Shown piece by piece: positions 2,151 through 25,191 of a stretch of DNA of 32,000 bases. The translations under genes were made by a program, and so were the position numbers. The DNA lies in NCBI RefSeq assembly GCF_000283555.1, contig NC_016012.1, positions 870,001 to 902,000 on the forward strand, given 5' to 3'. The number at the start of each line of letters is the position of its first letter. Within the stretch, counting starts at the first letter, position 1. This DNA comes from Candidatus Arthromitus sp. SFB-rat-Yit. Lineage in GTDB: Bacteria > Bacillota > Clostridia > Clostridiales > Clostridiaceae. Below the pieces are notes generated by a model, which saw only the letters and a program-made list of their open reading frames with translations, did not search any database and was not told the origin of the DNA.

Positions 2151-3407
2151 TTAAACTACTCTGGAATATACCATGTTAACTTCTTTAAAAATACTTTTAA
2201 ATTCAAATATAACATCATCGAGTGTAACTTTATTTAATTCATCAAAATAATCAAAGATATTCAAATTATTTTTTATAAGTTTAATCATAAGTTGCGAAAT
2301 ATGATCAATGTTGTTAAATAAATTAATATAATTCCCGTACATAGCTTTCTTAACTCGATCAAAAACAATCTTATCTTTTGAAAAATCATAATTATTATAA
2401 TGGTCAAACAAAATTTCTGGAAGATTTTTGAACAAATCACCATCACCACCAAATAAATAATGACCATACTCATTTTCGTTTATATAATCTGTATAATAGC
2501 TTCCGTTTATTATCCCATCTTTATAAATCTTTTCATAAAAGTTTGATGTCGCTCTAAAAAACATTCTATGTATCATCTCAAAAATTATAAATTTCTTAAC
2601 ATAATTTGTAGATCTAGTCACATCTTTAAATCCTATTAGATTCGTAGGCACGCTCATTTTCATATCCTGCTCTACATAATGCTTACTAATTTCATCAAAC
2701 ATATCAAATTTTTGTCTAACTATATTTTTACTAAATTTGTTTACAATGAATCTCTCTAGCATCTCTTTACACTCTTCTGCCTTAACATTACCGACCAAAA
2801 CTAAAAACATATTATTATTTGAATAAAATGTATTATAACAATCTTCCAAGTGACTCTTTTCTATAAGTTTTATTGTATTAACATCTCCGCCTATATCAAA
2901 TCTAACAGGATGATTATTATACATTGCAGAAAGTAAATTTCTATAAACTCTATTGTATGGATCATCGTCATACATTTTAAGTTCCTGTTCAATAATAGGC
3001 TTTTCTTTATCAACTCTCTCAGTTGTTAACTTTAAGTTGTAAATCATATCGCAAAGATACTCGAGCGACTTTTCAAAATTGTTGATAGTGCTAAAATAAT
3101 AATTCGTAATATTATTTGATGTATAAGCATTAACATCTGCACCAATATCCGAAAATTTTTTAAATACCTCATCATCACCCATACCATCAAACATTTTATG
3201 TTCCAAAAAATGAGCAATTCCCAATGGATATCTCTTAAATTCCTTTTCATCATTAAACTTAAATGAAATATCATTTGAACCATACTTTATAACAAAATAA
3301 GCTGATGCAATGGAAAATTCATTTTTTTCCATGACATAAACTTTAAGTCCATTTATCTCAAAACTTTTTACAGACTCCTTTAGTAAATCATTTTTCAAAA
3401 TTTTCAT
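2151..3407 (-). CDS. M16 (pitrilysin/insulinase) family zinc peptidase, catalytic-type subunit
   Basis: 418 aa carrying the inverted zinc motif HxxEH (GIAHFLEHKMFDG). ATGA overlap with the upstream partner gene. Confidence 0.85.
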   Translation of the reverse strand: MKILKNDLLKESVKSFEINGLKVYVMEKNEFSIASAYFVIKYGSNDISFKFNDEKEFKRYPLGIAHFLEHKMFDGMGDDEVFKKFSDIGADVNAYTSNNITNYYFSTINNFEKSLEYLCDMIYNLKLTTERVDKEKPIIEQELKMYDDDPYNRVYRNLLSAMYNNHPVRFDIGGDVNTIKLIEKSHLEDCYNTFYSNNNMFLVLVGNVKAEECKEMLERFIVNKFSKNIVRQKFDMFDEISKHYVEQDMKMSVPTNLIGFKDVTRSTNYVKKFIIFEMIHRMFFRATSNFYEKIYKDGIINGSYYTDYINENEYGHYLFGGDGDLFKNLPEILFDHYNNYDFSKDKIVFDRVKKAMYGNYINLFNNIDHISQLMIKLIKNNLNIFDYFDELNKVTLDDVIFEFKSIFKEVNMVYSRVV

Positions 3408-4636
3408 TCATTCATCTCCCCACAAGGTCTAACAGAAAATATCGCCGATTTAAATATTCTTTTTGAAACTTCTATTATTCTCCCTTTATCAACCTTATCT
3501 ATATTGTCTATAAATTCATCTACACCTATGTATTTATCAAAAATATATAACGGTGCAATAAATGCATGTATAGCAGAAATTCTATCATAAATGGACATCA
3601 AAATACGCCTTATTGTCATTTTAGCATTTTCTATTTCTAAATCCGTAATCTCTCCACTCTGCATACTCTCAATTTCTTTTAAAATAATTTCTTTTGTATA
3701 ATCCAAATTTTTATCATCAATTCCGCATTCAATTGAAATTAAACCTTTAAACTTTTCATAATAAGAATTTATATAATAAACAAGACTTTGTTTCTGACGA
3801 ACTTCTCTATAAAGTTTTGAATATCCACCACCCAAAATACAATTAAACACAAAAAAGGCATAATAATCACCGTTAAAAATCGTGATATCAGTTTTAAAGT
3901 TTATAACTAACTTTGTTTGTGTAACTTCATGGTTTTCAAATTCTTCAACAAAAGGAGTTTCTATAAATTTATTATTGTTTGTTGAAAACCTTTTTTGGAT
4001 ATTATCTCCAAATCTATCGCTGAGCATACTCTTTATTTTTTCTTCATCAAAATCGCCCATAACAATAAAATAATATGGAAGAGTCTTCAAATTTTCATAA
4101 TACTCATAGAGATTAAATTCATCAATTTTATCGAGACTCTCAATACTTCCATAAAAATGGTTTGCATATGGCTCATTTTTAGTAGATAACTGTTCGCATT
4201 TTATGTACGCATAATAACCCTTTGAGTCTACAATACTCAAAATATTTGAACGAAGATTTTCCTTCTCTATATCGAGGAAATCCTTTTTAAAACAATTTCC
4301 ATCATTTAAAGTGTTATAAAAAATTTCATATAAAAAATCAATCACATCTTCCCAAAGTGAAATATTTTCTATGATATATTTATCTTTCAAAAAACTTATG
4401 TAAATTGTAAATACAGCAACCTCTCCATATTTATTAAGATAACAATCAAATTGGGCTCCATACATCTCTTGAAGTTTGCTATAAAGTTTTTTGAATGAAT
4501 CGTACTTCTTTGATCCTACCTTAATCATTTCCGCTATCAAATTTAGATCCGTAATCTTTTCATCTAAATCAATTGGGATATTCAAACTAATGCTATTGGA
4601 CTTAAATTTATCATTTTTAATAAATTTTATGTTCAT
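3404..4636 (-). CDS. M16 family peptidase-like protein lacking the HxxEH motif (probable non-catalytic partner)
   Basis: 410 aa, of similar size to the downstream M16 gene and translationally coupled to it (ATGA overlap). I see no HxxEH in the sequence. The pairing resembles the YmfF/YmfH arrangement. Confidence 0.65.
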   Translation of the reverse strand: MNIKFIKNDKFKSNSISLNIPIDLDEKITDLNLIAEMIKVGSKKYDSFKKLYSKLQEMYGAQFDCYLNKYGEVAVFTIYISFLKDKYIIENISLWEDVIDFLYEIFYNTLNDGNCFKKDFLDIEKENLRSNILSIVDSKGYYAYIKCEQLSTKNEPYANHFYGSIESLDKIDEFNLYEYYENLKTLPYYFIVMGDFDEEKIKSMLSDRFGDNIQKRFSTNNNKFIETPFVEEFENHEVTQTKLVINFKTDITIFNGDYYAFFVFNCILGGGYSKLYREVRQKQSLVYYINSYYEKFKGLISIECGIDDKNLDYTKEIILKEIESMQSGEITDLEIENAKMTIRRILMSIYDRISAIHAFIAPLYIFDKYIGVDEFIDNIDKVDKGRIIEVSKRIFKSAIFSVRPCGEMNE

Positions 4637-4667: not shown

Positions 4668-4696
4668 TTGACACAACAAAATTAATCATCTATAAT
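4668..4696 (+). promoter_or_regulatory. Consensus sigma-A promoter for tRNA-Sec
   Basis: TTGACA (4668..4673), a 17-nt spacer, then TATAAT (4691..4696). It lies about 15 nt upstream of the tRNA 5' end. Confidence 0.7.
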
Positions 4697-4710: not shown

Positions 4711-4807
4711 GGGGGTAGATGAGTTCTGGTGGACTTGCAAGTCTTCAAAACTATGTTATCGTGCTAATACCACGATAGGTGGGTTCGATTCCTACATACT
4801 CCCGCCA
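4711..4807 (+). tRNA. selC: tRNA-Sec (selenocysteine), anticodon UCA
   Basis: 97 nt, folded by hand. Acceptor arm is GGGGGTAG/ATACTCCC (7 bp plus 1 mismatch). D arm has a 6-bp stem (GAGTTC/GGACTT) and a 4-nt loop (TGGT), typical of tRNA-Sec. Anticodon loop is CTTCAAA, giving UCA. The long variable arm has a 7-bp stem (TATCGTG/CACGATA). T arm is GTGGG-TTCGATT-CCTAC. Discriminator is G and CCA is encoded. Confidence 0.85.
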
Positions 4808-4818
4808 CTAATTGCAAT

Positions 4819-4849
4819 AAAAAGGCATATCTCACGATATGCCTTTTTT
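4819..4849. terminator. Bidirectional rho-independent terminator (selC on +, paralog P1 on -)
   Basis: A5 - GGCATATC - tcac - GATATGCC - T6. The symmetric A/T flanks let it work on both strands. Confidence 0.75.
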
Positions 4850-4886: not shown

Positions 4887-5534
4887 TTATCTTTTTTGAT
4901 ATACAACTGTTGAAGTTCCACCATTACCTTCATAAGTTTTAGTGATACTATTGCCATCTTCAAGCACAGTAATCTTTGTTGTTGTATTATTCTTAGAGTC
5001 AGTTGTTTTAACCTCTTTTTTAAATTGTGATCCATCTTTAGTATTAGTAACTGTTACTTTCTTAGTTTTAGTTCCTCCGTCAATAGTATTATTACTAGTT
5101 AAAATTGTTGTACTATTACCTTGTTGATTTACAAATATATTTTTAGGAAGTCCATCTTTTGTCTTTGTTTCTATTTTAATCTGTCCTCCTAAGGGCACAC
5201 GAACAATTGTATATGGGCCATTATTAGGATTAATATTTTTTATAATACCATCTCTAGTTATTGTAGTAACATTAGATCCTGGTCTTACATTAAGAGTCTC
5301 GTCTCCCCCAGTACCACCTGTAAATTTTACTTTTACAGCATAACCTCCAAATGTATCTCCATTAATAAAAGGTGATTTACCTAAACCCTGTTTTACACCT
5401 GTCATTAATCTAAGCATAATCTGAGTAACTCCAACCTTCAGACTAGCCTGAGCTTCAACTTTAGTAAACAAACTAAAACAAGACGCTAATCCCACTACTC
5501 CTAAACAACTACCTAAATATTTTTTGTTCATCAT
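4887..5534 (-). CDS. Secreted Thr/Gly/Asn-rich protein of unknown function, paralog P1
   Basis: 215 aa. Signal peptide MMNKKYLGSCLGVVGLASCFSLFTKVEAQA. It shares ordered motifs with P2-P4 (FGG, LNVRPGS, GGQIKIETKTKDGLPK, TTD..NNTTT, C-terminal VVYQKR). GGAG RBS lies 10 nt upstream. There are only 40 bp to P2, so it is probably co-transcribed. Confidence 0.8.
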   Translation of the reverse strand: MMNKKYLGSCLGVVGLASCFSLFTKVEAQASLKVGVTQIMLRLMTGVKQGLGKSPFINGDTFGGYAVKVKFTGGTGGDETLNVRPGSNVTTITRDGIIKNINPNNGPYTIVRVPLGGQIKIETKTKDGLPKNIFVNQQGNSTTILTSNNTIDGGTKTKKVTVTNTKDGSQFKKEVKTTDSKNNTTTKITVLEDGNSITKTYEGNGGTSTVVYQKR

Positions 5535-5574
5535 ATTATGTCAACTCCTATATCCGATTAATAAAATGAGCTAA

Positions 5575-6249
5575 TTAATTATTTTCGTATATGATTACCG
5601 TCTTATCTCCACCATGATATTTAGTAGTAGTACCTTCAGGATTTCTAGTTACAGAACGAGCCGTAAGAGAATTTGAATCTCCAAGTGTCATAGTTACAAC
5701 AAGTGTTGTAGTTGAATCTTTTGTAGGATCAGTTGTTCTAACAGTTTTTGTGAGTTTTGACCCATTTCCACTACCAGTCACCTCATAAAATTTAAACTTA
5801 CTTCCCCCACCTACAGTAGTCTTATAAGTTGAAGCATCTACTGAACCATCACCATTTGGTTTTATAAGCATCGTCTTAGGAGAACCATTACTCGTAGTCG
5901 TATCTATCTTCAATTGACCTCCTGCAGGTAACATAATAGTTTTAGGTCCATTCCCAGTAACATTAATAGGAATATTATCACCATTTCCATTTATCAAAGT
6001 ATATTTAGATCCCGGTCTTAAATTAAGAGCAGAAGTATTATTTCCACTATCGTTCCCAACGAGCGTCTTAATAGAACTTCCTCCAAATACATTCTTTGTT
6101 ATAAATGAATTTCCATTACCCAAACCATATTTAGTCAAAGTGGAAAGAAGAGTAGGTCTAGCCTGAGCTTTAGTTCCAGGCAGAAGGCTACTAACAGCTG
6201 CTACCCCCCCCCATACTCCTAAACAGATTCCCAAATATTTTTTCTTCAT
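5575..6249 (-). CDS. Secreted Thr/Gly/Asn-rich protein of unknown function, paralog P2 (contains the G9 tract)
   Basis: I trimmed the track ORF (5575..6303) to the ATG at 6249, which gives MKKKYLGICLG... and is preceded by GAGGT. The 18 upstream codons fall inside the conserved promoter/leader. Signal peptide ends ...TKAQA. Family motifs are FGG, LNLRPGS, GGQLKID, PKTML, RTTD..STTT, NSLTARSVT and IIYENN. Confidence 0.8.
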   Translation of the reverse strand: MKKKYLGICLGVWGGVAAVSSLLPGTKAQARPTLLSTLTKYGLGNGNSFITKNVFGGSSIKTLVGNDSGNNTSALNLRPGSKYTLINGNGDNIPINVTGNGPKTIMLPAGGQLKIDTTTSNGSPKTMLIKPNGDGSVDASTYKTTVGGGSKFKFYEVTGSGNGSKLTKTVRTTDPTKDSTTTLVVTMTLGDSNSLTARSVTRNPEGTTTKYHGGDKTVIIYENN

Positions 6250-6320
6250 ATGTACTTTAACCTCAATACTTAAATTTTTATTTATTAATAAATTGTAACA
6301 CACTAATGAACAATTTTAAA
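6250..6320 (-). promoter_or_regulatory. Conserved promoter plus 5' leader cassette, copy A (upstream of P2)
   Basis: The minus strand reads ...TTCATTAGTGTGTTACAATTTATTAATAAATAAAAATTTAAGTATTGAGGTTAAAGTACAT-ATG. Extended -10 TGTTACAAT is at 6292..6300 and RBS GAGG at 6261..6264. It is near-identical to 7031..7103. Confidence 0.65.
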
Positions 6321-6355
6321 CCAAAACACCAAAATTAAATAATAAAATAAATCCA

Positions 6356-7030
6356 TTAACTATTTTCATATATAATTGTCATATTAATTCCATCGCTATA
6401 TCTTGTAATCCTCTCTTCTGGAGTTACGGTCACAGAACGAGCTGTACTGTTTGGATTTTCACTACCTCCCGTTACTATAGTAGTTGTTGTCGTTGAATTG
6501 TTCCGATCGTCTGTCTCTCTAATTATTTTTTCCATTTTTGAATCCACTCCCGTACCAGTCACAGTTAAGAACTTAATCTTAAATCCTCCATTATCATTTC
6601 GTTTTGAAGTTGTAAGAGTTACGCTATCAAAGCCAGTTTCTAATAACATAGTCTTAGGCATTCCATCCTTAGTTTTCGTATTTAATTGAACTTTTGAATC
6701 ATTCTGAGTGTTTAAATACATCAACGATCCTTCACCAGCTAAATCCATACTCGTTCTTGTTCCATCTTTATCTATTACAATTACCTTAGTTCCTACTCTC
6801 ACATTAAGAGCCGAAGGATCTCCTCCAGAATTTCCTACACGTATTTTATAAACATTCCCTCCAAATGGACCTCTAGTTAAAAAACCTCTAGACCCACCCA
6901 TCATAAGTTTTACCATACTAGATGTTGCTCCAAGTTTTGGAATAGCTTTAACATCAACTTTTGTCAAAAAACTAAACAAGGACACTATACCCAATGTACT
7001 CAGACAAGTGCCCAAATATTTTTTATTCAT
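6356..7030 (-). CDS. Secreted Thr/Gly/Asn-rich protein of unknown function, paralog P3
   Basis: I trimmed the track ORF (6356..7048) to the ATG at 7030 (MNKKYLGTCLS...), which has the same GAGGT-N10-ATG context as P2. Signal peptide ends ...VDVKA. Motifs are FGG, SALNVRVG, KTKDGMPKTML, RETD..STTTT, NSTARSVT and IIYENS. Confidence 0.8.
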   Translation of the reverse strand: MNKKYLGTCLSTLGIVSLFSFLTKVDVKAIPKLGATSSMVKLMMGGSRGFLTRGPFGGNVYKIRVGNSGGDPSALNVRVGTKVIVIDKDGTRTSMDLAGEGSLMYLNTQNDSKVQLNTKTKDGMPKTMLLETGFDSVTLTTSKRNDNGGFKIKFLTVTGTGVDSKMEKIIRETDDRNNSTTTTTIVTGGSENPNSTARSVTVTPEERITRYSDGINMTIIYENS

Positions 7031-7103
7031 ATGTACTTTAAACCTCAATACTTAAAATATTTTTATTTGTTAATAGATTGTAACACACTAATGAATAAAT
7101 TTA
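7031..7103 (-). promoter_or_regulatory. Conserved promoter plus 5' leader cassette, copy B (upstream of P3)
   Basis: Extended -10 TGTTACAAT is at 7077..7085. The sequence catatgtactttaaacctcaatacttaaaatatttttatttgttaatagattgtaacacactaatgaa aligns with 6247..6310 with only a few substitutions or indels. Confidence 0.65.
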
Positions 7104-7143
7104 AATAAAAATAATAAAAGCATTTTTATTTTGATAATTTGTT

Positions 7144-7152
7144 TGGTATAAT
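7144..7152 (+). promoter_or_regulatory. Candidate extended -10 promoter for P4 (divergent from P3)
   Basis: TGGTATAAT (TGnTATAAT) lies about 42 nt upstream of the P4 ATG. The -35 is weak (TTTTAT). Confidence 0.45.
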
Positions 7153-7193
7153 TTACTTAAAAATTTAAATTTTAAGGATAAAGATAGAATTAT

Positions 7194-8111
7194 ATGAACA
7201 AGTATTATTTAAAAACTTATATAGCTACATTTGGAGTAATGTCATCTTTTTGTTTTTTACCAAGCATCACTTCTAAAGCCACACCTTTAAGATCTACATC
7301 CAGAATTTTTAATGCTCTTTTAAGATTAGGTACTTCAAACGAATCGTTTGTAAAAAGATTAGGAGGCGGACGAGCTATCCTCACTCTAGATTACTCAGGT
7401 AATGGAAGCGGAAGAGGAATACCTGTACCGCCAAATTCCCTCGTCTTTATTGAAACTAAAGACGGGGTTAAATTAACTTCAACTACCACAAACGAAAAAA
7501 GTAAAAATATTTTATTAGATAGTGGTAGCTTCATCTATTACACTAAATTAAGTAAAAATGGTCAACCTTACAAAACTAAAGTAACAGTTGGGAGCAATTC
7601 CGTTACAGTCACTACACTTAAAAAAACTATTGACGGCTCAACAGTCAAAAAAGTCACAAAATTAACCGAGTCTTCTAATAAATATCCAGCAGGAAAAGTT
7701 CAACAAGACATTCACATGACTCCTTATCAAGGTAATTCTCTTACACATCGTTCGTATCAAAAATTAGATCTACATAATGAAAACAACTATACAAAATATG
7801 AAGAAACCAAAACCCCCGTTCACTTCACATCCAAATATGAAGATCCAAATAAATTAATTACAACAGAAAAACTTCCTGGATTTGATTATAAAAATACATT
7901 AATTAAAGCCACAGGTGAAACTCAAATCCAAGCTACAAATAAATTTGGAAGTGTAGTTACTACTACAAAAGGTGGTATAACTACAATACATAAATTTAAT
8001 ACAAATGGTGATCTAACTAAAGTATCTACTAAATCTCCTTCTGGACGTTCAGAAACAATATATAACTCTAGCGGAGCTATTGAATCTGGATACAAAATAA
8101 CTCACCATTAA
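7194..8111 (+). CDS. Secreted protein, divergent longer paralog P4 of the P1-P3 family with a C-terminal extension
   Basis: 305 aa. Signal peptide MNKYYLKTYIATFGVMSSFCFLPSITSKA. It keeps a recognisable family motif order (LGGG, IETKDG, KTKVTVG.., GNSLTHRSYQ, NYTKYEE), then adds about 75 extra residues with YD-repeat-like beta-hairpin patterns. Confidence 0.75.
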   Translation: MNKYYLKTYIATFGVMSSFCFLPSITSKATPLRSTSRIFNALLRLGTSNESFVKRLGGGRAILTLDYSGNGSGRGIPVPPNSLVFIETKDGVKLTSTTTNEKSKNILLDSGSFIYYTKLSKNGQPYKTKVTVGSNSVTVTTLKKTIDGSTVKKVTKLTESSNKYPAGKVQQDIHMTPYQGNSLTHRSYQKLDLHNENNYTKYEETKTPVHFTSKYEDPNKLITTEKLPGFDYKNTLIKATGETQIQATNKFGSVVTTTKGGITTIHKFNTNGDLTKVSTKSPSGRSETIYNSSGAIESGYKITHH

Positions 8112-8119
8112 ACAAAAAC

Positions 8120-8150
8120 AAAAAGCAAGTACGATATGTACTTGCTTTTT
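8120..8150. terminator. Bidirectional terminator between P4 (+) and the ABC exporter operon (-)
   Basis: AAAA - AGCAAGTAC - gatat - GTACTTGCT - TTTT. Confidence 0.75.
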
Positions 8151-8163
8151 ATATCTTTGAGCT

Positions 8164-9975
8164 TTAAGCATTCTCCTCAAACTGACTATTATAAAGATCA
8201 GCATAAGAACCATTTTGAGCCATAAGCTCATCATGATTACCATGTTCAATTATATTACCTTGTTTCATTACAAGTATTAAATCAGAATCTTTTATTGTTG
8301 AAAGTCTGTGAGCAATAACAAAGCTTGTTCTACCTTCCATAAGATTCCTCATAGCTTTTTGAATTAACGCTTCCGTTCTTGTATCTACGTTACTTGTAGC
8401 CTCATCAAGAATAAGAATCTTCGGATCAGCAACAATCGCTCTAGCAATAGTTAAAAGTTGCTTTTGACCTTGTGATATATTTGACGCATCCTCATTTAAT
8501 ACTGTATCATACCCATTTTCAAACAATCTTATAAAATCATCCGTATGTGCTGCCTTAGATGACTCTATTATTCGTTCATCTGTCGCACCATCCAAACTAT
8601 AAGATAAATTTTCTTTTATGGTACCATTAAAAAGCCAAGTATCTTGAAGAACCATTCCAAAGTTACTTCTCAAATAATCCCTGGTCATGTCATTAATATC
8701 TACTCCATCAATCTTAATACTTCCACCATTTATATCATAAAAACGCATTAAAAGATTTATAAGAGTTGTCTTACCTGCACCAGTATGACCAACAATAGCT
8801 ACTTTTTGCCCTGGCTTAACCTCAAAACTAATATTATTCATAAGAGGTTTATCTGGATTGTATCCAAATTTAACATTTTCAAAAACAACTCTACCATGAA
8901 CATCTGGTATCCTAGCATCTTTAGTAGACTCTGGAGTAAGTTCTTCTTCGTCTAAAAATTCAAATACCCTTTCTGCAGCTGCTAAAGTTGATTGAAATAA
9001 ACTTGCAATACTTGCAATTTGGTTTATTGGCATTCCAAACTGTCTTGAATATTGAATAAATGCTTGAATATCACCTATTCCAATCTTCCCTATTATGCTG
9101 AAGTATCCTCCAATTATAGCTATAATAATATAGTTTATGTTATTAATAAACATCATTACAGGCATTATAATTCCAGATATAAATTGAGCTTTCCAACCGC
9201 TTTCATATAAACTTTCATTAATTTCATCAAATCTTTTAACATTATTTGGCTCACGTCCAAAAGCTTTCACAACATTATGTCCAGAATACATCTCTTCAAT
9301 GTATCCATTAAGCTCACCTACGGTCTTTTGCTGGCTCTTAAAATATTTTTGTGACTTGCCAACTAAAGGTTTTATAAGATTAGTCCCAATAAACAAAATT
9401 AAAATAGTAAGTATCGTCATTATAGGACTTATCGTTATCATAGCAATTATAACTCCAACTATAGTTATAACCGAAGAAATAAATTGAGTTAAGTTCTCTT
9501 GAAGTGTTGTCGCAATTAACTCTATGTCATTAGTCAAACGACTTAAAATTTCTCCATGTGTTTTGGTATCATAATAATTCAAAGGAATTCTAGAAATCTT
9601 TAGATCCACATCTTTCCTCAAATCATACATAGTACTTTGTCCAAAACCAGCCATTATATAGTTCTGCAAATAAGTAAATAAACATCCTAAAGAATAAAGG
9701 ACAATAAGTATTAGAATTATCTTCCCTATAAATTGAAAATCAATACCACCCATGCCTGTTGCTATTCTAATAGCACCATCAAACACTTCATTTATAGCCT
9801 TACCCATAATTTTTGGACCAACAATATTAAATACTTGACCTATTATAGCAAAAACAATAATCACTATTAAAATCCACAATCTAGGTTTAAAATATCCAAA
9901 TAATCTCTTAGCAGTTCCTTTAGATGGTTTAGATTTTTTAATTTCCGAGAAATGTCCTACATCTTGTTTCCTCAT
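8164..9975 (-). CDS. ABC exporter, fused permease/ATPase; subunit with canonical catalytic residues and a degenerate signature motif
   Basis: 603 aa with an N-terminal 6-TM domain. Walker A is GHTGAGKTT, Walker B with catalytic Glu is ILILDEATS, and the H-loop is VIAHRLST. The signature is ISQGQ instead of LSGGQ. ATGA overlap with the upstream partner. Confidence 0.9.
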   Translation of the reverse strand: MRKQDVGHFSEIKKSKPSKGTAKRLFGYFKPRLWILIVIIVFAIIGQVFNIVGPKIMGKAINEVFDGAIRIATGMGGIDFQFIGKIILILIVLYSLGCLFTYLQNYIMAGFGQSTMYDLRKDVDLKISRIPLNYYDTKTHGEILSRLTNDIELIATTLQENLTQFISSVITIVGVIIAMITISPIMTILTILILFIGTNLIKPLVGKSQKYFKSQQKTVGELNGYIEEMYSGHNVVKAFGREPNNVKRFDEINESLYESGWKAQFISGIIMPVMMFINNINYIIIAIIGGYFSIIGKIGIGDIQAFIQYSRQFGMPINQIASIASLFQSTLAAAERVFEFLDEEELTPESTKDARIPDVHGRVVFENVKFGYNPDKPLMNNISFEVKPGQKVAIVGHTGAGKTTLINLLMRFYDINGGSIKIDGVDINDMTRDYLRSNFGMVLQDTWLFNGTIKENLSYSLDGATDERIIESSKAAHTDDFIRLFENGYDTVLNEDASNISQGQKQLLTIARAIVADPKILILDEATSNVDTRTEALIQKAMRNLMEGRTSFVIAHRLSTIKDSDLILVMKQGNIIEHGNHDELMAQNGSYADLYNSQFEENA

Positions 9976-11702
9976 GACAATTCCTCCTCTGATAATTGAG
10001 ATTTTGCGATTTCTCTATATACTTCACAATTATTAAGTAATTCTTTGTGCGTACCTATTCCAACAACTCTACCATTATCCATTACAATAATTTTATCTGA
10101 ATGCATTACGGAAGTTACTCTTTGCCCTACAATTAAAATGATTGCATTTTTTATATTCTCTTTAAGAGCAGCTCTCAATTTAGAATCTGTTTTAAAATCC
10201 AATGCAGAGAAACTATCATCAAACATATAAATTTTTGAATCTCTAACCAAAGCTCTTGCTATTGACAATCTCTGTTTCTGTCCTCCAGAAAAATTAGTTC
10301 CACCTTGAGCTACATAAGAATCAATTCCATCTTCAAGATTACTAACAAACTCATGAGCTTGAGCAATCTTAAGAGCCCTCTCGAATCTTTCATCTGTCGC
10401 AGATTCATCACCATATTTCAAGTTAGATCTTATAGTACCAGAAAATAATACTGCCTTTTGGGGCACATATCCTATACTTTCCCTCAATTCTTTCTGAGTT
10501 ATATCTTTAATATCAACTCCATTTAAAAGTATTTTACCTTTAGTAACTTCATAAAATCTTGAAATAAGATTTAATATAGTACTTTTACCCGATCCTGTAC
10601 CCCCAATTATCGCAACTGTATCACCTGACTTACATTCAAAATCTATATTTTCAAGATCATATTCTCCAGTATTATTATAAGAAAAACTAACATTATCAAA
10701 TTTTAAAGTAACCTCATTTGAATCACTTAGTTTCTTAACATTCTCTATATCATTTATAGAAAAATCTGTTTCTAAAACTTCATTTATACGTTTTGCAGAA
10801 GAAATAGCTTTCGGTATCATCGCAAAAAGCATGAAAAATATCATAAGTGAAATCATAATCTGATTTGAATATTGTATAAATGCAATTAAATCTCCAACCA
10901 TAAGAGTACTATCAGCAACTCTATAACTTCCAAACCAAACAACAGCTAAAGAGTTAAAATAAAATATGAGAAACATTATTGGTATTAACTTTGCAAAAAT
11001 ACGATATGCCTTCGTAACCGAATTACTCAAATCCCTATTTGCATCATCAAATCTATTTTCTTCATATTTTTGCTTATTAAAAGCTCTAATAACTCTTATC
11101 CCCGTTAAATTTTCTCTCGAAATCAAATTAACTTTATCAAGTTTCTTTTGTATTTTAGAAAATAACTTAATCGCCTTTTTCCCTATCATAAATACAACTA
11201 TAAAAAGTATCGGTATTGATATCAAAAGTATGATTGATAATTTAATATCTGTATACATTGAAACAATCAAACCACCTATAGCAGTCATAGGTCCAAGTAT
11301 CATCATTCTTAACATCAATAATGTCATATTCTGAACCTGAGTTATATCATTAGTTGTTCTAGTTATAAGTGATGCAACTCCAAACTTATCTACTTCTTTA
11401 GAAGAAAAACTTTGAACTTTAATAAATACCCTTCTTCTTATTTCTTGTCCAAATTTAACAGAAATTCTAGATGACAATAGTATTGATAATAAAGATACTA
11501 TAATAGAAATCGAAATAACCACTAACATTTTCAATGCCTGAATGCCTATGATTCCCATATCTTTATTTACTATTCCTTCATCTACAACCTTTGACATTAT
11601 ATTTGGTAGCAATAATTCCATCATCGATTGTGCGAAAATAAGAAAAAATATAAGTAAAATCATGAACTTATATTTTTTAAGATATTTAAACAAAGATAAC
11701 AT
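9972..11702 (-). CDS. ABC exporter, fused permease/ATPase; subunit with degenerate Walker B and H-loop and a canonical signature
   Basis: 576 aa. Walker A is GGTGSGKST and the signature is FSGGQKQR. Walker B is IYMFDDS, with Asp in place of the catalytic Glu. The H-loop is VGQRVTS, with Gln in place of His. GGAGGGTG RBS. Confidence 0.9.
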   Translation of the reverse strand: MLSLFKYLKKYKFMILLIFFLIFAQSMMELLLPNIMSKVVDEGIVNKDMGIIGIQALKMLVVISISIIVSLLSILLSSRISVKFGQEIRRRVFIKVQSFSSKEVDKFGVASLITRTTNDITQVQNMTLLMLRMMILGPMTAIGGLIVSMYTDIKLSIILLISIPILFIVVFMIGKKAIKLFSKIQKKLDKVNLISRENLTGIRVIRAFNKQKYEENRFDDANRDLSNSVTKAYRIFAKLIPIMFLIFYFNSLAVVWFGSYRVADSTLMVGDLIAFIQYSNQIMISLMIFFMLFAMIPKAISSAKRINEVLETDFSINDIENVKKLSDSNEVTLKFDNVSFSYNNTGEYDLENIDFECKSGDTVAIIGGTGSGKSTILNLISRFYEVTKGKILLNGVDIKDITQKELRESIGYVPQKAVLFSGTIRSNLKYGDESATDERFERALKIAQAHEFVSNLEDGIDSYVAQGGTNFSGGQKQRLSIARALVRDSKIYMFDDSFSALDFKTDSKLRAALKENIKNAIILIVGQRVTSVMHSDKIIVMDNGRVVGIGTHKELLNNCEVYREIAKSQLSEEELS

Positions 11703-12164: not shown

Positions 12165-13901
12165 ATGATTGAGGTAATTATAAATGATAAAAAAATATCA
12201 TCTGAAAAAGGAAAAACCATTTTGCAAATAGCTAAAGATAATAATATAGAAATTAAAACATTGTGTTTTCTAGAGGATTGTCTAAATGTAAATCGTTGTG
12301 GTACTTGTATGGTTGAAATTGAAGGAAGTGGGGATGTCGTTCATGCTTGCTCAACTCTAGCTGAAGATGGAATGTCAATAAGAACAGACAGCGAAAAAGT
12401 GTCCGAAAAAATAAAAGAGAATATATCAAAAATTCTCGATTCTCATAACTTTACTTGTGGTAAATGTAAACGTCGTGAAACTTGTGAACTCTTACCTTTG
12501 GTTGTTCAAACCAAAGCTAGAGCATCCAAACCATTTATTGTAAAAAATCATGAAGAATACATAGACAATAGAAGTAAATCTATAGTTTTAGATAGATCAA
12601 GATGTATAAAATGCGGAAGATGTGTTGCAACTTGTAAAGAACGAGTTGGAACTGATTCAATAATTTTTCATGATGTAAATGGTGAAATTGTTGTTGGTCC
12701 ACAACATTTAGATTGTTTTGATGATACAAACTGTATACTTTGTGGACAGTGCGTAAATATTTGCCCTGTTGATGCTCTATATGAAAAATCACACATTGAA
12801 AGAGTAAAGGAGGCTCTTGAAAATCCAGATATTCATGTTATAGCAGCTATGGCCCCATCCGTTAGAACTTCTTTAGGTGAATTATTTAAGATGGATTACG
12901 GAATAGATGTTACAAATAAAATTTACACTGCTTTAAGAAAAATTGGATTCGATAAAATATTTGATATAAATTTCGGTGCAGATTTAACTATAATGGAGGA
13001 AGCAACAGAATTTGCAAACAAAATAAGAAGTAACAATACAAATTTCCCAATGTTTACATCCTGCTGTCCTGCTTGGGTAAGACTCGCTGAAAATCATTTT
13101 CCAGAACTTTTGGATAATCTTTCTTCAACAAAATCACCTCAACAAATTTTCGGTGCTGCAAGTAAGTCATACTACCCTTCAATAGAAAATCTTGATCCAA
13201 AAAAAGTATTTACTGTAACTATAATGCCTTGTACTGCTAAGAAATTTGAGGCAGATAGACCTGAGATGATTAATAACGGAGTGCGAAATATTGATGCTGT
13301 TATAACTACTCGTGAGTTTGGAAGAATGTTAAAAGAATTAAAAATAGATTTCGCATCTCTTGAAGATGGAGAATTAGATGAGGCTATGGGACTTTATACC
13401 GGTGCTGGAGCAATCTTTGGAGTTACTGGTGGAGTTATGGAAGCAGCCTTAAGAAGTGCGAAAGATATGCTTGAAAATAAAGATCTTGATAAAATTGAAT
13501 ATAAAGATGTTCGTGGATTCGAAGGAATTAAAGAAGCAACTGTTGAAATTAACAATAAAGAATATAACGTAGCCGTTGTTAATGGTGCATCTAACTTCTT
13601 CAAAATGATGAAAGACAATCTTCTTGATAAAAAACAATATCACTTTATCGAAGTCATGGCTTGTTATGGTGGATGTATAAATGGTGGAGGGCAACCTTAT
13701 GTTACACCTAAAATGAGAAACAAAATTGATTACAAAAAATTACGTGGAAATGTCCTATATAATCAAGACAAAAATTTAAAATATAGAAAATCACACCAAA
13801 ACCCTGCCTTATTAAAAATGTATAAAACTTACATGGGAACACCTGGTGAAGGATTAGCACACGAAATATTGCACCAAAAATACAAAAAGAAAGAGAATTA
13901 A
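12165..13901 (+). CDS. hydA: [FeFe]-hydrogenase, CpI-type (M3 architecture)
   Basis: 578 aa. N-terminal 2Fe-2S ferredoxin-like Cys pattern. His-ligated cluster motif HNFTCGKCKRRETC. Two 4Fe-4S motifs, CIKCGRCVATC and CILCGQCVNICP. H-cluster signatures are TSCCPAW, MPCTAKKFE and EVMACYGGCINGGGQP. GGAGG RBS lies 7 nt upstream. Confidence 0.95.
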   Translation: MIEVIINDKKISSEKGKTILQIAKDNNIEIKTLCFLEDCLNVNRCGTCMVEIEGSGDVVHACSTLAEDGMSIRTDSEKVSEKIKENISKILDSHNFTCGKCKRRETCELLPLVVQTKARASKPFIVKNHEEYIDNRSKSIVLDRSRCIKCGRCVATCKERVGTDSIIFHDVNGEIVVGPQHLDCFDDTNCILCGQCVNICPVDALYEKSHIERVKEALENPDIHVIAAMAPSVRTSLGELFKMDYGIDVTNKIYTALRKIGFDKIFDINFGADLTIMEEATEFANKIRSNNTNFPMFTSCCPAWVRLAENHFPELLDNLSSTKSPQQIFGAASKSYYPSIENLDPKKVFTVTIMPCTAKKFEADRPEMINNGVRNIDAVITTREFGRMLKELKIDFASLEDGELDEAMGLYTGAGAIFGVTGGVMEAALRSAKDMLENKDLDKIEYKDVRGFEGIKEATVEINNKEYNVAVVNGASNFFKMMKDNLLDKKQYHFIEVMACYGGCINGGGQPYVTPKMRNKIDYKKLRGNVLYNQDKNLKYRKSHQNPALLKMYKTYMGTPGEGLAHEILHQKYKKKEN

Positions 13902-13918
13902 ATATTCTCTTTCTTTTT
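13884..13918. terminator. 15-bp perfect inverted repeat spanning the overlapping hydA and hydF stop codons (probable bidirectional terminator)
   Basis: AAAAAGAAAGAGAAT (13884..13898), loop TAAAT, then ATTCTCTTTCTTTTT (13904..13918). I checked this base by base. hydA TAA is at 13899..13901 and hydF TAA (reverse complement) is at 13898..13900. Confidence 0.6.
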
Positions 13919-15100
13919 AAATATCTCTATCGCTCTATCAAGTATTCCAGTCAAATAGGCTATTACAACTCCATAATTTGTGATACTAATCCCTTTCTCT
14001 CCACAAAAATTAACACGATTAATAACACTTTTCCTATTTATCATACAGGCACCGCAATGTATAACCAAATCATACTCATCAAGATTATCAGGAAAATCAT
14101 TACCAACATAAAAATCATATTTTAATTCATAACCAACATGCTTATTTAACAATTTTGGGATTTTAAACCTCCCAATATCTTCATGTGAAACATTATGACT
14201 ACAACTCTCTGCAATCAATATTTTTGAATCTTTGTTCAATTCTTCAATCTTTCTAACTCCATCAACAAAACTTTTTAAATTCCCTTTATGCCTTGCAAAC
14301 AAAATTGAAAAACTGGTTAAAGGTATATTTTTTGGCACAACTTCCGAAACTTTTTTAAAAACTTGAGAATCTGTTATAACAAGATCAATATCTTTCAAAT
14401 CCTTCAGTCCATCTTCAAGTTCTGTATCTCTTAAAACATAGCTTTTTATCCCATGATCCAAACAATCACGAATACATTGAACTTGTGGAAGAATTATTCT
14501 ACCCTTTGGTGCCTCGGAATCTATAGGTACAACCATAACAACCTTACTATTATAAGGAAGAATATCTCCAATTATTGGAATTTCATACTCAGATTCACTA
14601 AAAATTTGGATAATTCTATTTTTTAAATTTTCAATACCTTCACCACTCTCGGTTGATACAAATATAAAATCATTAAAATCTTTAGAAATCTCTTCACGAT
14701 CCGAATCTTTTAATAAATCAGCTTTATTTATAACAACAATATGAGGAACATTAAATTTTTTAAAATTAATCCTCATTTTCTCATACGAATCTTTATCCAA
14801 ATCCATACAATCAAAAACATATATAGAAAGATCTACTCTCTTTAAAGTATCATATGTTTTGTTAAATCTTAAACTCCCAAGTTCACTATCATCGTCACTC
14901 CCAGCTGTATCTATAAATAAAACAGGCCCTATCGGTATAAATTCCATTGGTTTTGAAACTGGATCTGTCGTAGTGCCACCTATTGGTGAAACAATGGAAA
15001 CATTTTGATCCATAATTTTATTAATTAAAGAAGATTTTCCAACATTTGTTTTCCCATAAATCCCAATGTGCTTTCTATTAGCATTCGGAGTACTAAACAT
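13898..15100 (-). CDS. hydF: [FeFe]-hydrogenase maturation GTPase HydF
   Basis: 400 aa. G1 motif GKTNVGKSSLIN and NKAD G4 motif. C-terminal cluster-binding pattern is ESCSHNVSH...VIHCGACM (CxH...HCxxC). 8-bp overlap with the hydG stop. Confidence 0.9.
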   Translation of the reverse strand: MFSTPNANRKHIGIYGKTNVGKSSLINKIMDQNVSIVSPIGGTTTDPVSKPMEFIPIGPVLFIDTAGSDDDSELGSLRFNKTYDTLKRVDLSIYVFDCMDLDKDSYEKMRINFKKFNVPHIVVINKADLLKDSDREEISKDFNDFIFVSTESGEGIENLKNRIIQIFSESEYEIPIIGDILPYNSKVVMVVPIDSEAPKGRIILPQVQCIRDCLDHGIKSYVLRDTELEDGLKDLKDIDLVITDSQVFKKVSEVVPKNIPLTSFSILFARHKGNLKSFVDGVRKIEELNKDSKILIAESCSHNVSHEDIGRFKIPKLLNKHVGYELKYDFYVGNDFPDNLDEYDLVIHCGACMINRKSVINRVNFCGEKGISITNYGVVIAYLTGILDRAIEIFKKKENI

Positions 15101-16469
15101 ATAAATCTCTTTCTCCCTTCCTTAATCTATCTATCCTATCTTCAACCATATCACGCACATGCTTCTTTTCAAAATCATTTTTAATATTATCAATAAGTCC
15201 ATTAACTTGATTCATAATCTCATCATCACCATAATCAAGTGCATATTCTACTAAACTCATCAAAGCATTCGGTTCACAAACATTTTGTATTTGCCCAGTC
15301 TTAGCAAGACTCATAAATCTTTCACCAGTTCTACCCTTTCTATAACAAGCAGTACAATAACTAGGAATGTAACCATCATTCACAAGTTCCTTTAAAACTT
15401 CGAGAGGACTTCTATCATCACAAGTTTCAAACTGGTTAACATTTTTTCTATCCTCTTTTTCTTTATATCCACCAACTCCTGTTACAGAACCTGCACTAAT
15501 TTGAGAAACACCATATCTAAGAAGTTCTCTCCTCATTTCCTTATTTTCCCTAGTAGACAGAATTATACCAGTAAACGGAACAGCTATCCTTATGACCGCA
15601 ACAATTTTTTTGAAAGTTTCGTCATCTAAAACATTTGGAAAATCCTCGAGATTCATTCCTTCAGCCTTTTTAAGACGTGGTACAGAGATTGTATGAAAAC
15701 CTACTTTAAACTTTTCTTCCAAATACTCATTATGTAACATAAGTGCCAAAACCTCAAATTTAGGATCAGCTAAACCAAATAAAACCCCCGCACCAACATC
15801 ATCAATTCCTGCTTCCATAGCTCTGTCAAATGAATTCAAATGATAATTATAATCTCCCTTTATTGATTTCGGATGCATCTTTTCATATGTTGGCTTGTGA
15901 TAAGTTTCTTGAAACAATATATAAGTTCCTATGTTCGCATCTTTCAACTTTCTATAATTTTCAACAGTAGTAGCTGCAATATTTACATTTATACGTCTAA
16001 TCTCTCCATTATCATTTTGAGTTTTATAAATAGTATCAATACATTCTAAAATATAATCAATAGGAACATTTATAGGATCTTCTCCAACTTCAAGTGCAAG
16101 CCTTTTATGCCCCATACTCTCTAAAATCTTAACTTCATTCCTAATCTCATCTTGAGTTAATTTTCTTCTCTCAAATTTGTTATCTCTCCTATAACCACAA
16201 TACAAACAGTTATTAACACAATGATTACTAACATACAACGGAGCAAACATAACTATTCTCTTACCATAAATAGACTCCTTTATCCCTCCTGCAATTTTAT
16301 AAATACTTTCTAATTGATTCTTATCTTCAACCTGAAGAAGTATTGCAACTTCCTTATGATTAAGTCCTTCTTTCTTTTTAGCCTTATCAATTACAAATTG
16401 AACATCATCTTTTGATGCGGATTTGCTTTCATTTAAAATTTTTTCTATATAATCATGATCAATGAACAT
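15093..16469 (-). CDS. hydG: [FeFe]-hydrogenase maturase HydG (radical SAM tyrosine lyase)
   Basis: Radical-SAM motif CVNNCLYCGY and C-terminal auxiliary-cluster motif CTACYRKGRTGERF. I moved the start from the track's 16502 to the ATG at 16469 (MFIDHDYIEKIL...), which is preceded by GGAGGAG. Confidence 0.9.
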   Translation of the reverse strand: MFIDHDYIEKILNESKSASKDDVQFVIDKAKKKEGLNHKEVAILLQVEDKNQLESIYKIAGGIKESIYGKRIVMFAPLYVSNHCVNNCLYCGYRRDNKFERRKLTQDEIRNEVKILESMGHKRLALEVGEDPINVPIDYILECIDTIYKTQNDNGEIRRINVNIAATTVENYRKLKDANIGTYILFQETYHKPTYEKMHPKSIKGDYNYHLNSFDRAMEAGIDDVGAGVLFGLADPKFEVLALMLHNEYLEEKFKVGFHTISVPRLKKAEGMNLEDFPNVLDDETFKKIVAVIRIAVPFTGIILSTRENKEMRRELLRYGVSQISAGSVTGVGGYKEKEDRKNVNQFETCDDRSPLEVLKELVNDGYIPSYCTACYRKGRTGERFMSLAKTGQIQNVCEPNALMSLVEYALDYGDDEIMNQVNGLIDNIKNDFEKKHVRDMVEDRIDRLRKGERDLYV

Positions 16470-16491
16470 AACTACTCCTCCTAAATAAAAA

Positions 16492-17601
16492 TTAAAATCC
16501 AAGTATACTATTTATAGAAACTTGTTGTTCATCATACTGTTTAACATCTGGATTATCATGACTCCACTTTACATTGTCACCCCTAGTTATTGCAACCTCA
16601 AAACCCGCATTATTAATTCTTCTCTCTATACATTTTCTACATTCTGCTGCTTCATCACCAGTACAAATTTTACCATCATAAAGAGCATATTTTTCTCTAA
16701 CATTTGTAGGAGATAAATTCGGCATAACAACATTTCCTCCAGCCTTTATTCCCTTTTCTCTTCCTAACTTATCAATACTTCCAAGAGCTGTTGTTGCAGG
16801 TAATAAAACATTAGGTAAAAGCAATCTAACAAGTGCAAGCATAATCACTGTATCTTCCAAAGTTCCAGCTGGATATTCACCAAGAGATGTCTCTTTTTGA
16901 GGTATAAACGGACCAATGCCACACATATGAGGCTCAATTTCCTTAACAAATCTTAAATCCTTAACTAAATCTCTTTTTGTTTGCCTAGGTAATCCAACCA
17001 TAAATCCAGCACCAAACTGATACCCTATCTCTTTAAGATTATAAAGACACTTTATTCTATCTCCAAAAATTTCTCCAGGATGAAGCCACTCATACAATTC
17101 TTTTGAAGCAGTTTCATGCCTTAACAAATATCTATCTGCCCCAGCATCAAACATTTTTTTATAAGAATCATAACTTCTTTCACCTAAAGATAACGTTATT
17201 GCATTATTAGGAAACATTTCCTTAATTCCTCTTATGATTTCAATCATTCTTTCATCAGTAAAATAAGGATCTTCCCCTCCTTGCAACACATAAGTTTTAT
17301 ATCCAAGCCTATCTCCAATAACCGCACACTCCATTATTTGATCATAGGTAAGCCTATATCTATCTGCATTTTTATTTTTACCTTGTATACCACAATACTC
17401 ACAATTTTTCTTACAATAATTCGTAAATTCAATAAGACCTCTCATAAAAACTTTATTCCCATAAGTTCTCATTCTAGTTTCATGTGACTTTTCTATCAAA
17501 TATTCTTTACTATCCTCATCAATATTTTCCAAAATATATAAAAGCTTCTCGTCTGAGAGATTATTAAATTCAAACAACTCATCAATATATCCTTTAATCA
17601 C
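16492..17601 (-). CDS. hydE: [FeFe]-hydrogenase maturase HydE (radical SAM)
   Basis: 369 aa with CKKNCEYCGI (CxxxCxxC), BioB-like, first gene of the hydE-hydG-hydF operon. GTG start is preceded by AAGGAGAG. Confidence 0.9.
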   Translation of the reverse strand: MIKGYIDELFEFNNLSDEKLLYILENIDEDSKEYLIEKSHETRMRTYGNKVFMRGLIEFTNYCKKNCEYCGIQGKNKNADRYRLTYDQIMECAVIGDRLGYKTYVLQGGEDPYFTDERMIEIIRGIKEMFPNNAITLSLGERSYDSYKKMFDAGADRYLLRHETASKELYEWLHPGEIFGDRIKCLYNLKEIGYQFGAGFMVGLPRQTKRDLVKDLRFVKEIEPHMCGIGPFIPQKETSLGEYPAGTLEDTVIMLALVRLLLPNVLLPATTALGSIDKLGREKGIKAGGNVVMPNLSPTNVREKYALYDGKICTGDEAAECRKCIERRINNAGFEVAITRGDNVKWSHDNPDVKQYDEQQVSINSILGF

Positions 17602-19720: not shown

Positions 19721-19721
19721 T

Positions 19722-22093: not shown

Positions 22094-22105
22094 AGATAAA
22101 CTCCG

Positions 22106-24104: not shown

Positions 24105-24112
24105 AATTCAAC

Positions 24113-25177: not shown

Positions 25178-25191
25178 GTTTACTCCTAATT

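Follow-up and report, generated by a model that had tools for sequence, protein, structure and literature searches.

What are the four paralogous genes, here called P1–P4, that fill positions 4887-8111 of a 32,000-nucleotide stretch of the chromosome of Candidatus Arthromitus sp. SFB-rat-Yit (hereafter the window, meaning the whole stretch), and why do they vary so strongly when the genes on either side are conserved? The question concerns segmented filamentous bacteria (SFB), model commensals that drive gut T helper 17 (Th17) and immunoglobulin A (IgA) maturation, only after host-specific attachment (PMC12780176, PMC7474095). The window is 99.99-100% identical to the assemblies of run DRR001117, and its adjacent M16-type gene is 100% identical to the SFB-rat-Yit protein. 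By exact protein look-up, the four genes are BAK81327-BAK81330; they are already deposited, as a 'hypothetical protein' throughout. No earlier description seems to exist of the family, of the fixed and hypervariable slot that it occupies, of its OspA-like architecture or of its evolution by cassette exchange. The locus combines paralogy, copy-number variation, recombination mosaicism and replacement-biased divergence. The reading that we favour, and hold to be moderately probable, is that P1–P4 are exported proteins, envelope-associated or released, at the interface between SFB and host, with a variable body and a cassette swapped by homologous recombination. Their surface location, the mechanism of their retention and the selective agent are what we infer from the comparisons below. 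The genes and the borders of the slot are as follows.

4711..4807, plus strand: tRNA-Sec gene (selC), found by ARAGORN and by Rfam (RF01852, 59.5 bits)
4887-5534, minus strand: P1 (BAK81327.1 / WP_014094787.1), open reading frame (ORF) of 215 amino acids (aa), short type, nearest selC
5575-6249, minus strand: P2 (BAK81328.1 / WP_014094788.1), ORF of 224 aa from the conserved ATG, short type
6356-7030, minus strand: P3 (RATSFB_0767, BAK81329.1 / WP_044035546.1), ORF of 224 aa, short type
7194-8111, plus strand: P4 (BAK81330.1 / WP_014094790.1), ORF of 305 aa, long type
7878..8108, plus strand: P4 codons 229-305, a replacement hotspot in the strain comparison
8164..11702, minus strand: heterodimeric ATP-binding cassette (ABC) exporter pair, with ABC_membrane and ABC_tran in each protein (domain scan)

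P1–P3 stand in tandem on the minus strand and P4 diverges from them on the plus strand. An earlier note, made from the letters of this DNA, had described a cluster of four paralogous secreted proteins between selC and an ABC exporter operon. The four ORFs are indeed there, between selC (4711-4807) and the exporter pair (8164-11702), and their paralogy is borne out: P2 matches P3 at E=4e-39 (39% identity), while P4 matches P1 at E=8e-9 and P3 at E=2e-11. The ordered motifs that the note listed (FGG, ALN[VL]R[PV]G[ST], GGQ[IL]KI, TKTKDG.PK, GG.K.KF..VTG, R.TD..STTT, NS.TARSVT and IIYEN) are visible in an alignment of the four proteins, strong in P1–P3 and weak in P4. The Thr/Gly-rich composition is likewise as described, the mature proteins containing 14-17% T and 9-14% G, neither Cys nor Trp, and having an isoelectric point (pI) of 9.5-10. 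The mature parts amount to ~19.7 kDa for P1 (pI 10.0), 20.2 kDa for P2 (pI 9.8), 21.0 kDa for P3 and 30.3 kDa for P4, which consists of the domain held in common with P1–P3 plus a C-terminal beta-hairpin extension.

The distribution of the family was established in two ways. An exhaustive search of 1.84 billion representative proteins was made with a profile built from the mature forms of P1–P4, and the slot was also sampled regardless of its content, with the conserved M16 neighbour as bait. The profile search gave nine matches, namely four orthologues from a rat-like sister lineage, three distant relatives and two compositional false positives that were dropped (P0005, a eukaryotic ankyrin-repeat protein, and P0007, a repeat protein). 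A second profile, from alignment A3, was dominated by an included Dwaynia-type sequence and did not recover the known members, and its E-values are uninformative for P1–P4. Scans of GTDB genomes with the N-terminal pattern of the family, and of JGI metagenomes with the neighbouring gene as bait, came up empty. Every distant relative with a retrieved contig lies between the ABC-exporter pair and the series selC-M16-M16-mraW-ftsL-PBP-murE; the family is restricted to the SFB clade and to this one slot. Its conserved left border is selC, whose 3′ end points to the cluster and which is kept beside the slot in L001, L005 and L006; its conserved right border is the ABC exporter pair. Between these borders, the number of family genes is as follows.

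L006 (a Ca. Arthromitus metagenome-assembled genome): 0
L017: 0
L010: 2
L014: 2
L016: 2
rat SFB (the window): 4
rat-like sister lineage (L001/L018): 4
mouse SFB (L009): 4, one in fragments
turkey/chicken-type lineage (L015): 5

Copy number thus ranges from 0 to 5 across nine lineages, and 18 occupants from seven of them form one BLAST-connected family. The locus is accessory, as the earlier note had proposed: two lineages have no family gene in the slot and the others have 2-5, and the scan of copy number and synteny that the note called for places all of them at one fixed position. The long P4-type is present in every occupied slot and is apparently the ancestral form; the short P1–P3 type occurs in rodent SFB only, rat and mouse SFB alike having one long and three short paralogues. 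Within a genome, the paralogues are closer to each other than to the members of other lineages, which points to repeated local duplication and/or gene conversion. The mouse assignment of L009 follows from its M16 gene and its 224-aa slot protein, which fall into the 90%-identity clusters of SFBmNL_00981 and SFBmNL_00982.

Some further features of the slot were noted in passing. In the more distant SFB lineages, a gene for a small RDD-domain membrane protein stands between the ABC pair and the slot; it is reduced to a 70-aa remnant in L014 (2157-2369), and there is none in rodent SFB. Its intact copies are located as follows.

L010: 11095-11565
L015: 1484-1969
L016: 4243-4689

The Dwaynia-type protein P0017 (579 aa, from ENA contigs) contains the N-domain twice in tandem, an internal duplication, and L015_355 looks like the end part of a similar long ORF.

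A cluster that abuts the 3′ end of a tRNA gene, a classic island insertion site, and whose G+C content (33-34%) is slightly above that of the neighbouring DNA could be a foreign genomic island that a site-specific recombinase inserted at tRNA-Sec. However, no integrase gene and no integrase-sized ORF is found between selC and ABC2, the window contains a single copy of the selC 3′ end (with up to 3 mismatches allowed), and no flanking direct repeats exist beyond those due to paralogy; moreover, every occupied SFB slot contains the same family, found nowhere outside the clade, which points to vertical inheritance. An island of the integrase type, which we regard as extremely improbable, was rejected on the unrepeated selC 3′ end and the missing flanking repeats. 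Because integrase, second selC 3′ end and non-paralogy repeat are all lacking, the slot is best seen as vertically inherited and diversifying in place. The other border raises the idea that P1–P4 are cargo, bacteriocin-like or of another dedicated kind, of the ABC exporter whose two genes physically adjoin them. Against it, the ABC pair has the same neighbours where the slot is empty, its proteins consist only of ABC_membrane and ABC_tran with no C39 peptidase, the signals of P1–P4 are of Sec type and not double-glycine leaders, and a terminator-like hairpin separates P4 from ABC2. This idea, whose probability is close to negligible, was rejected on the conservation of the pair around the empty slot; since the exporter is unchanged there and has no peptidase domain, it is a conserved neighbour and no functional partner.

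How strongly the content of the slot departs from its surroundings is apparent from the comparison of rat and mouse SFB, in which the flanking proteins are 84-92% identical and the cluster proteins ~32%. For reference, the proteome-wide mean identity between the two is 83.4%, and SFB-specific secreted proteins stand at ~75% (PMC3371716). A finer comparison was made between rat-Yit and the rat-like sister lineage (L001/L018), using synonymous divergence (dS) and the ratio of replacement to synonymous divergence (omega), with the following results.

hydA: dS 0.25
ABC1: dS 0.19
ABC2: dS 0.078
P4: dS 0.025, omega 1.41
P3: dS 0.013, omega 2.70
P2: dS 0.025, omega 0.72
P1: dS 0.007, omega 0.59
M16a: dS 0.46
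M16b: dS 0.58
mraW: dS 0.29
ftsL: dS 0.25

With dS of 0.007-0.025 against a background of 0.2-0.6, the cassette must have been common to both lineages far more recently than the split of the genomes. Since this sharing, it has gained mostly amino-acid changes, as judged from the same alignments: the pooled ratio of replacement to synonymous differences is 53:12 in the cluster vs 119:231 in the flanks (Fisher p=1e-12), and the omega of every flanking gene is 0.02-0.12. The dS of M16a and M16b (0.46-0.58) is about twice the background of 0.19-0.29, as if the M16 block had come from a more distant donor.

The mosaic is also seen at shorter range. Rat-Yit and the strain L011 are 99.1% identical over an overlap of 15.5 kb, and their 134 differences are patchy, with none in P1–P3, 30 in the last ~200 nt of P4, 36 in ABC2, 25 in M16a and 11 just 3′ of selC. 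In the C-terminal 77 codons of P4, 26.5 differences are replacements and 3.5 synonymous (omega 2.5); ABC2 has 7 replacement vs 29 synonymous differences (omega 0.06). The differences in the P4 C-terminus and in ABC2, at dS 0.07-0.08, look like one imported tract. Three close strains have three different P4 C-terminal alleles. Variation of the same kind exists in mouse SFB, where 19% of sites (43 along 224 residues) vary among 15 variants of the SFBmNL_00982-type protein, compared with 2.7% in the adjacent M16 protein. From these substitution counts, purifying selection is completely lost in the cluster relative to the neighbouring genes, and positive selection on the cluster is likely. In two respects, the locus thereby resembles a recombining surface-antigen cassette: conserved flanks enclose deeply divergent alleles, and recombination tracts that end within the flanks go with an excess of replacements in the cassette.

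The same data may be read in terms of host specificity, P1–P4 being secreted adhesins or effectors that bind an epithelial or mucus ligand, and the cassette type tracking the host species. The attachment of SFB is host-specific and its factors are unidentified (PMC7474095, PMC13153320), and the identity of ~32% between rat and mouse cluster proteins is extreme compared with the proteome mean of 83.4% (PMC3371716). The presence of the same cassette (dS 0.01-0.02) in two rat-type lineages whose genomes differ by a dS of 0.2-0.3 would be expected if it were tied to the host. Replacements are widespread along the protein (43 variable sites in 224 residues), while a receptor binder usually keeps a conserved surface, and no recognisable binding domain is present. 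On this evidence, a role as host-specificity determinants is unlikely.

The expression signals found by consensus scanning, or by eye where indicated, are the following.

4668..4696, plus strand: promoter-like site 5′ of selC, TTGACA-17-TATAAT, 12/12 matches (consensus scan)
4819..4849, no strand assigned: hairpin GGCATATC-tcac-GATATGCC between an A-run and a T-run, read by eye and unlisted by the consensus scan
6292..6320, minus strand: P2 promoter-like site with an extended -10 (TG-n-TACAAT), within the 5′ block duplicated between P2 and P3 (consensus scan)
7077..7105, minus strand: P3 promoter-like site, likewise with an extended -10 and homologous to that of P2 (consensus scan)
7144..7152, plus strand: P4 extended -10 element TGGTATAAT, ~40 nt 5′ of the start codon, unlisted by the two-hexamer scan
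8118..8152, no strand assigned: bidirectional terminator-like hairpin between P4 and the ABC exporter gene (consensus scan)

An extended -10 promoter element and a Shine-Dalgarno sequence precede each of P2, P3 and P4; P1 starts 40 nt after P2 and is probably co-transcribed with it. The hairpin at 4819..4849 looks like a bidirectional terminator for selC and the P2-P1 transcript, so that terminator-like hairpins are found at both ends of the cluster. Given these promoter elements, Shine-Dalgarno sequences and closing hairpins, the genes look functional. The 5′ blocks of P2 and P3 (6230-6334 and 7011-7119), which comprise the promoter, the 5′ untranslated region and the signal peptide, are 87% identical in DNA; the mature regions, by contrast, are down to 39% protein identity, and this difference suggests gene conversion or a strong constraint on the 5′ end. 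Concerning the gene calls, P3 was first deposited as 186 aa (BAK81329.1) and re-called as 224 aa (WP_044035546.1), and only the longer call includes the signal peptide. In the Logan assembly of DRR001117 (L012 7425-8341), P4 is split into ORFs of 131 and 107 aa, probably by a read-error frameshift; it is intact in the finished genome.

Export is predicted for all four proteins. Their N-termini have 2-3 K/R, then a 12-residue stretch with a mean Kyte-Doolittle hydropathy of 1.7-2.1, then a cleavage site which, by sequence rules, would be AQA|S in P1, AQA|R in P2, VKA|I in P3 and SKA|T in P4. The earlier note had assigned type I signal peptides throughout, which is sustained as a prediction, with a reservation for P1: this protein has a lipobox L-A-S-C (Cys19) that fits [LVI][ASTVI][GAS]C, so that types I and II (lipoprotein) are equally likely for its signal, and lipidation of P1 is predicted as the alternative. 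P2–P4 have no conforming lipobox; the selC-proximal paralogue of mouse SFB has a lipobox-like L-I-S-C. The best-conserved element of the whole family is a ~20-residue segment right after the signal cleavage site, and F50 and G57 are invariant in alignment A3.

No recognisable domain was found, in agreement with the earlier note. P1–P4 and six distant members gave no Pfam match at E<=1, no NCBIfam, PHROGs or PADLOC match above noise was obtained for P1–P4 or distant members, PDB sequence searches with two family profiles returned nothing significant, and Rfam detected only tRNA-Sec in the window. SLH, CWB2, LysM, SH3 and choline-binding domains are absent from P1–P4 according to Pfam and NCBIfam, and none of the C-termini (…VVYQKR, …IIYENN, …IIYENS, …YKITHH) has an LPXTG motif with a hydrophobic tail. 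DUF4214 (PF13946) was not matched by Pfam in P1–P4 or their relatives; RHS_repeat, YD and MORN gave no Pfam match, with Rhs core chains at E=2.2-2.8 in the PDB sequence search. With no confident match to a characterised family, export signals present and genes that are not single-copy core genes, the proposal of an undescribed accessory family stands.

An all-beta structure had also been proposed, and it is supported by AlphaFold2 models of P3 and P4, built from very shallow alignments. The mature P3 model (predicted local distance difference test, pLDDT, 75.8; predicted template-modelling score, pTM, 0.72) comprises a helix (residues 4-14) and then 15 antiparallel strands. The mature P4 model (pLDDT 86.4, pTM 0.78) has its helix at residues 8-18 and then 21 strands, also antiparallel and joined by turns of 2-6 residues, the C-terminal hundred residues reaching a pLDDT of ~95. 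When the P4 model was compared with the PDB by Foldseek, the top 45 matches were all Borrelia OspA (E 2e-4, probability 1.0, ~240 aligned columns, 14-16% identity). The likeness is read as a common architecture, a long antiparallel beta-meander, which does not imply homology, and the rod shape of the proteins is deduced only from the secondary-structure string and these OspA matches. OspA being a gut-epithelium adhesin in the tick, its architecture would also suit an adhesive role in host specificity. The P4-type C-terminal extension has a hairpin periodicity of ~10-12 residues (…F-N-x-x-G-x-[IL]…) and weak, non-significant matches to Rhs cores, the teneurin YD shell and viral MORN-repeat proteins.

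In another explanation, P1–P4 are surface proteins that diversify, as receptors or decoys, under pressure from phages and not from host immunity. Replacement hotspots, cassette exchange and copy-number change are the same signature as that of phage-receptor loci, and a viral fold library gave matches, weak only, to tail-fibre and beta-hairpin-repeat proteins. Nothing in that library scored below E 1e-3, however, and no phage or defence genes lie nearby. To our knowledge, no SFB phage biology has been described, and we consider phage pressure very unlikely.

A specific version of the favoured reading gives the proteins a structural function. Cryo-electron tomography of rat and mouse SFB has revealed an S-layer with 8 nm spacing on the unicellular offspring, a hair-like layer with 5 nm spacing on the filaments, made of hairs 1.4 nm wide and 28 nm long, and disordered hairs 34 nm long and 1.3 nm wide at the tip; the composition of all three is stated as unknown (PMC12780176). 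P1–P4 could be thin beta-sheet rods that build these hairs or the S-layer, possibly by end-to-end assembly with lipidated P1 as the base, the targets being the hairs of 1.3-1.4 nm x 28-34 nm or the 8-nm lattice. Several features are in line with this: rat and mouse SFB alike have the small spacings (5 and 8 nm) in layers of unknown composition (PMC12780176), one long and three short paralogues, and a selC-proximal lipobox (LASC in rat, LISC in mouse); the predicted OspA-like meander is elongated and a single beta-sheet is ~1 nm thick; and the conserved N-terminal segment could serve as a docking element. Nevertheless, one molecule of 15-21 strands would be only ~7-10 nm long, and loss in some lineages with decay in mouse SFB is unexpected for a major coat protein. 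The ~60 hypothetical exported proteins encoded by SFB (PMC7474095) make the prior low. We consequently judge it distinctly unlikely that P1–P4 are the rods of hairs or S-layer; the fuller proposal, that such rods form the hair-like layer and/or the tip hairs, dock by their N-terminal segment and contribute to host-specific attachment, is held with equally little confidence.

Several observations count against the reading of P1–P4 as an exchanged cassette of interface proteins, and some of them favour plain decay. On the structural side, Foldseek found no PDB match for the P3 model, the P4-OspA matches have template-modelling (TM) scores of only 0.19-0.30 with a root-mean-square deviation of 13-16 Å, and OspA was not found by sequence with either family profile (PDB, E<=10); the structure search advocated in the earlier note thus yielded nothing for P3 and, for P4, a likeness of architecture only. 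A literature search found no paper that mentions the family, its locus tags, or its expression, secretion or localisation. The argument for cassette exchange rests on metagenome-assembled contigs. Finally, no single omega is significantly >1 (binomial p 0.14-0.56), which leaves room for relaxed constraint; the slot is empty in L006 and L017; the third short mouse paralogue is broken (81+56 aa at L009 8447-8976, 112+116 aa at L008 1452-2147) and is apparently a decaying copy; and the orthologues L010_325/L014_325 have no signal peptide.

These last four points are those expected if the genes were dispensable and drifting under relaxed constraint in a recombination-prone spot, their variability being decay: omega near 1, a paralogue in fragments, empty slots and two orthologues that have lost their signal peptide. 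Against drift, at least 18 intact ORFs persist across lineages with 62-74% housekeeping identity, over which neutral sequence would have lost its frames; conservation extends to the order of the beta-strands, to the N-terminal motif, and to promoters and ribosome-binding sites; AlphaFold gives confident folds; and the cassette was recently carried across lineages and is still intact. Because intact ORFs, strand order, N-terminal motif and expression signals persist at such divergence, pure drift is improbable, to about the same degree as the assembly into hairs. As to the signal-less genes, the long-type orthologues at L010 9002-9979 and L014 3471-4448 have the conserved N-terminal segment as their exact start, each behind a promoter and a ribosome-binding site of its own, and they are 49% identical between the two lineages.

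Returning to the favoured reading, the following course of events may be proposed. By the sequence signals, each gene would be driven by its own promoter, with P1 probably on the P2 transcript. The products would be exported by the Sec route and cut by signal peptidase I after AxA, VKA or SKA, or, in the case of P1, may be lipidated at Cys19. The mature protein, of 20-30 kDa, basic and Cys-free, is predicted to consist of an N-terminal helix followed by an OspA-resembling antiparallel beta-meander. The ~20-residue post-cleavage segment and/or the positive charge may retain it at the anionic envelope or on a partner. According to the comparative data, the body, which would be exposed, gains replacements, the genes duplicate and decay in place, and whole cassettes move via the conserved flanks, selC/M16 on one side and ABC2 on the other.

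Beyond the slot, genes for an [FeFe]-hydrogenase and for the HydF, HydG and HydE maturases (12165-17601) adjoin the ABC pair, in a synteny kept across SFB lineages. On the other side, M16b and M16a lie at 2151-4636; M16a bears the NCBI name EF-P 5-aminopentanol modification-associated protein YfmF. The window had been called otherwise housekeeping, which is incorrect, because a glycopolymer locus (Wzy-like protein, glycosyltransferases, TagA/WecG) is present at ~19.7-25.2 kb; in its full extent (18917-25204) it encodes a polysaccharide deacetylase, a Wzy_C O-antigen-ligase-like protein, GT1/GT4 glycosyltransferases and a WecG/TagA-family transferase.

The relevance for SFB biology is moderate to high, for a family known here from sequences and models. 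P1–P4 are candidates for SFB surface structures or host-specificity factors; the list comprises, for rat SFB, RATSFB_0767 together with BAK81327, BAK81328 and BAK81330, and, for mouse SFB, SFBmNL_00982 with the genes next to it. These candidates are set apart by the predicted rod-like fold, the extreme rat-mouse divergence in a conserved neighbourhood, the cassette exchange and the replacement bias. The locus also shows how SFB genomes are shaped on a fine scale by homologous recombination, and, if the models are right, it adds a Gram-positive family without a consistent lipobox to the few OspA-like beta-meander architectures.

Four known systems invite comparison. The P4-type extension resembles Rhs/YD-repeat and MORN proteins in its ~10-12-residue hairpin periodicity, with insignificant matches (sequence E 2-3, fold >=1e-2), and differs from Rhs/YD proteins in having no toxin domain and no shell-sized repeat array. 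The DUF4214 proteins of SFB (Cluster.1/3 of Pamp et al.) have been proposed as surface components, and the group includes the Th17 antigen P3340 and the CD8 antigen SFBNYU_003240 (PMC3371716, PMC7474095). Like P1–P4, they are SFB-only, predicted exported and host-divergent beyond the proteome average (PMC3371716, PMC7474095); unlike P1–P4, they are large (113.8 kDa for the Th17 antigen), possess a C-terminal DUF4214 anchor motif and retain ~75% rat-mouse identity, compared with ~32%. The known T-cell antigens SFBNYU_003340, SFBNYU_004940 and SFBNYU_003240 are all large DUF4214 proteins, on which ground identity with them was rejected, and membership of P1–P4 in Cluster.1/3 was rejected for want of the motif. 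As for means of attachment to the wall in SFB, sortase is lacking and the attachment factors are unidentified (PMC7474095), SLH is absent and wall-binding domains are largely so (PMC12780176).

The third system is the OspA/OspB pair (PF00820), in which OspA is a surface antigen as well as an adhesin. OspA/OspB, the only significant PDB fold match for P4, share with its model ~21 antiparallel strands and short turns, and with P1–P4 in general a Lys/Thr/Gly/Ser-rich composition and tandem paralogous genes. OspA has a lipobox as P1 does, whereas P2–P4 have signal peptidase I sites and no lipobox. There is no sequence or profile similarity and the TM score is only 0.2-0.3; the helix is C-terminal in OspA and N-terminal in the P3 and P4 models; and OspA/OspB belong to a linear plasmid of a spirochaete, P1–P4 to a selC-adjacent chromosomal slot of a monoderm Firmicute. 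The fourth is the S-layer (slpA) cassette of Clostridioides difficile, from which P1–P4 differ in being small (20-30 kDa), in having no CWB2 or SLH, in forming 0-5 tandem paralogues and in a surface-layer status that is putative. The slpA cassette consists of divergent alleles between conserved flanks that are exchanged by homologous recombination, and its product is exposed to the host; the P1–P4 locus is like it in both the divergent alleles within conserved flanks and the exchange of the whole cassette.

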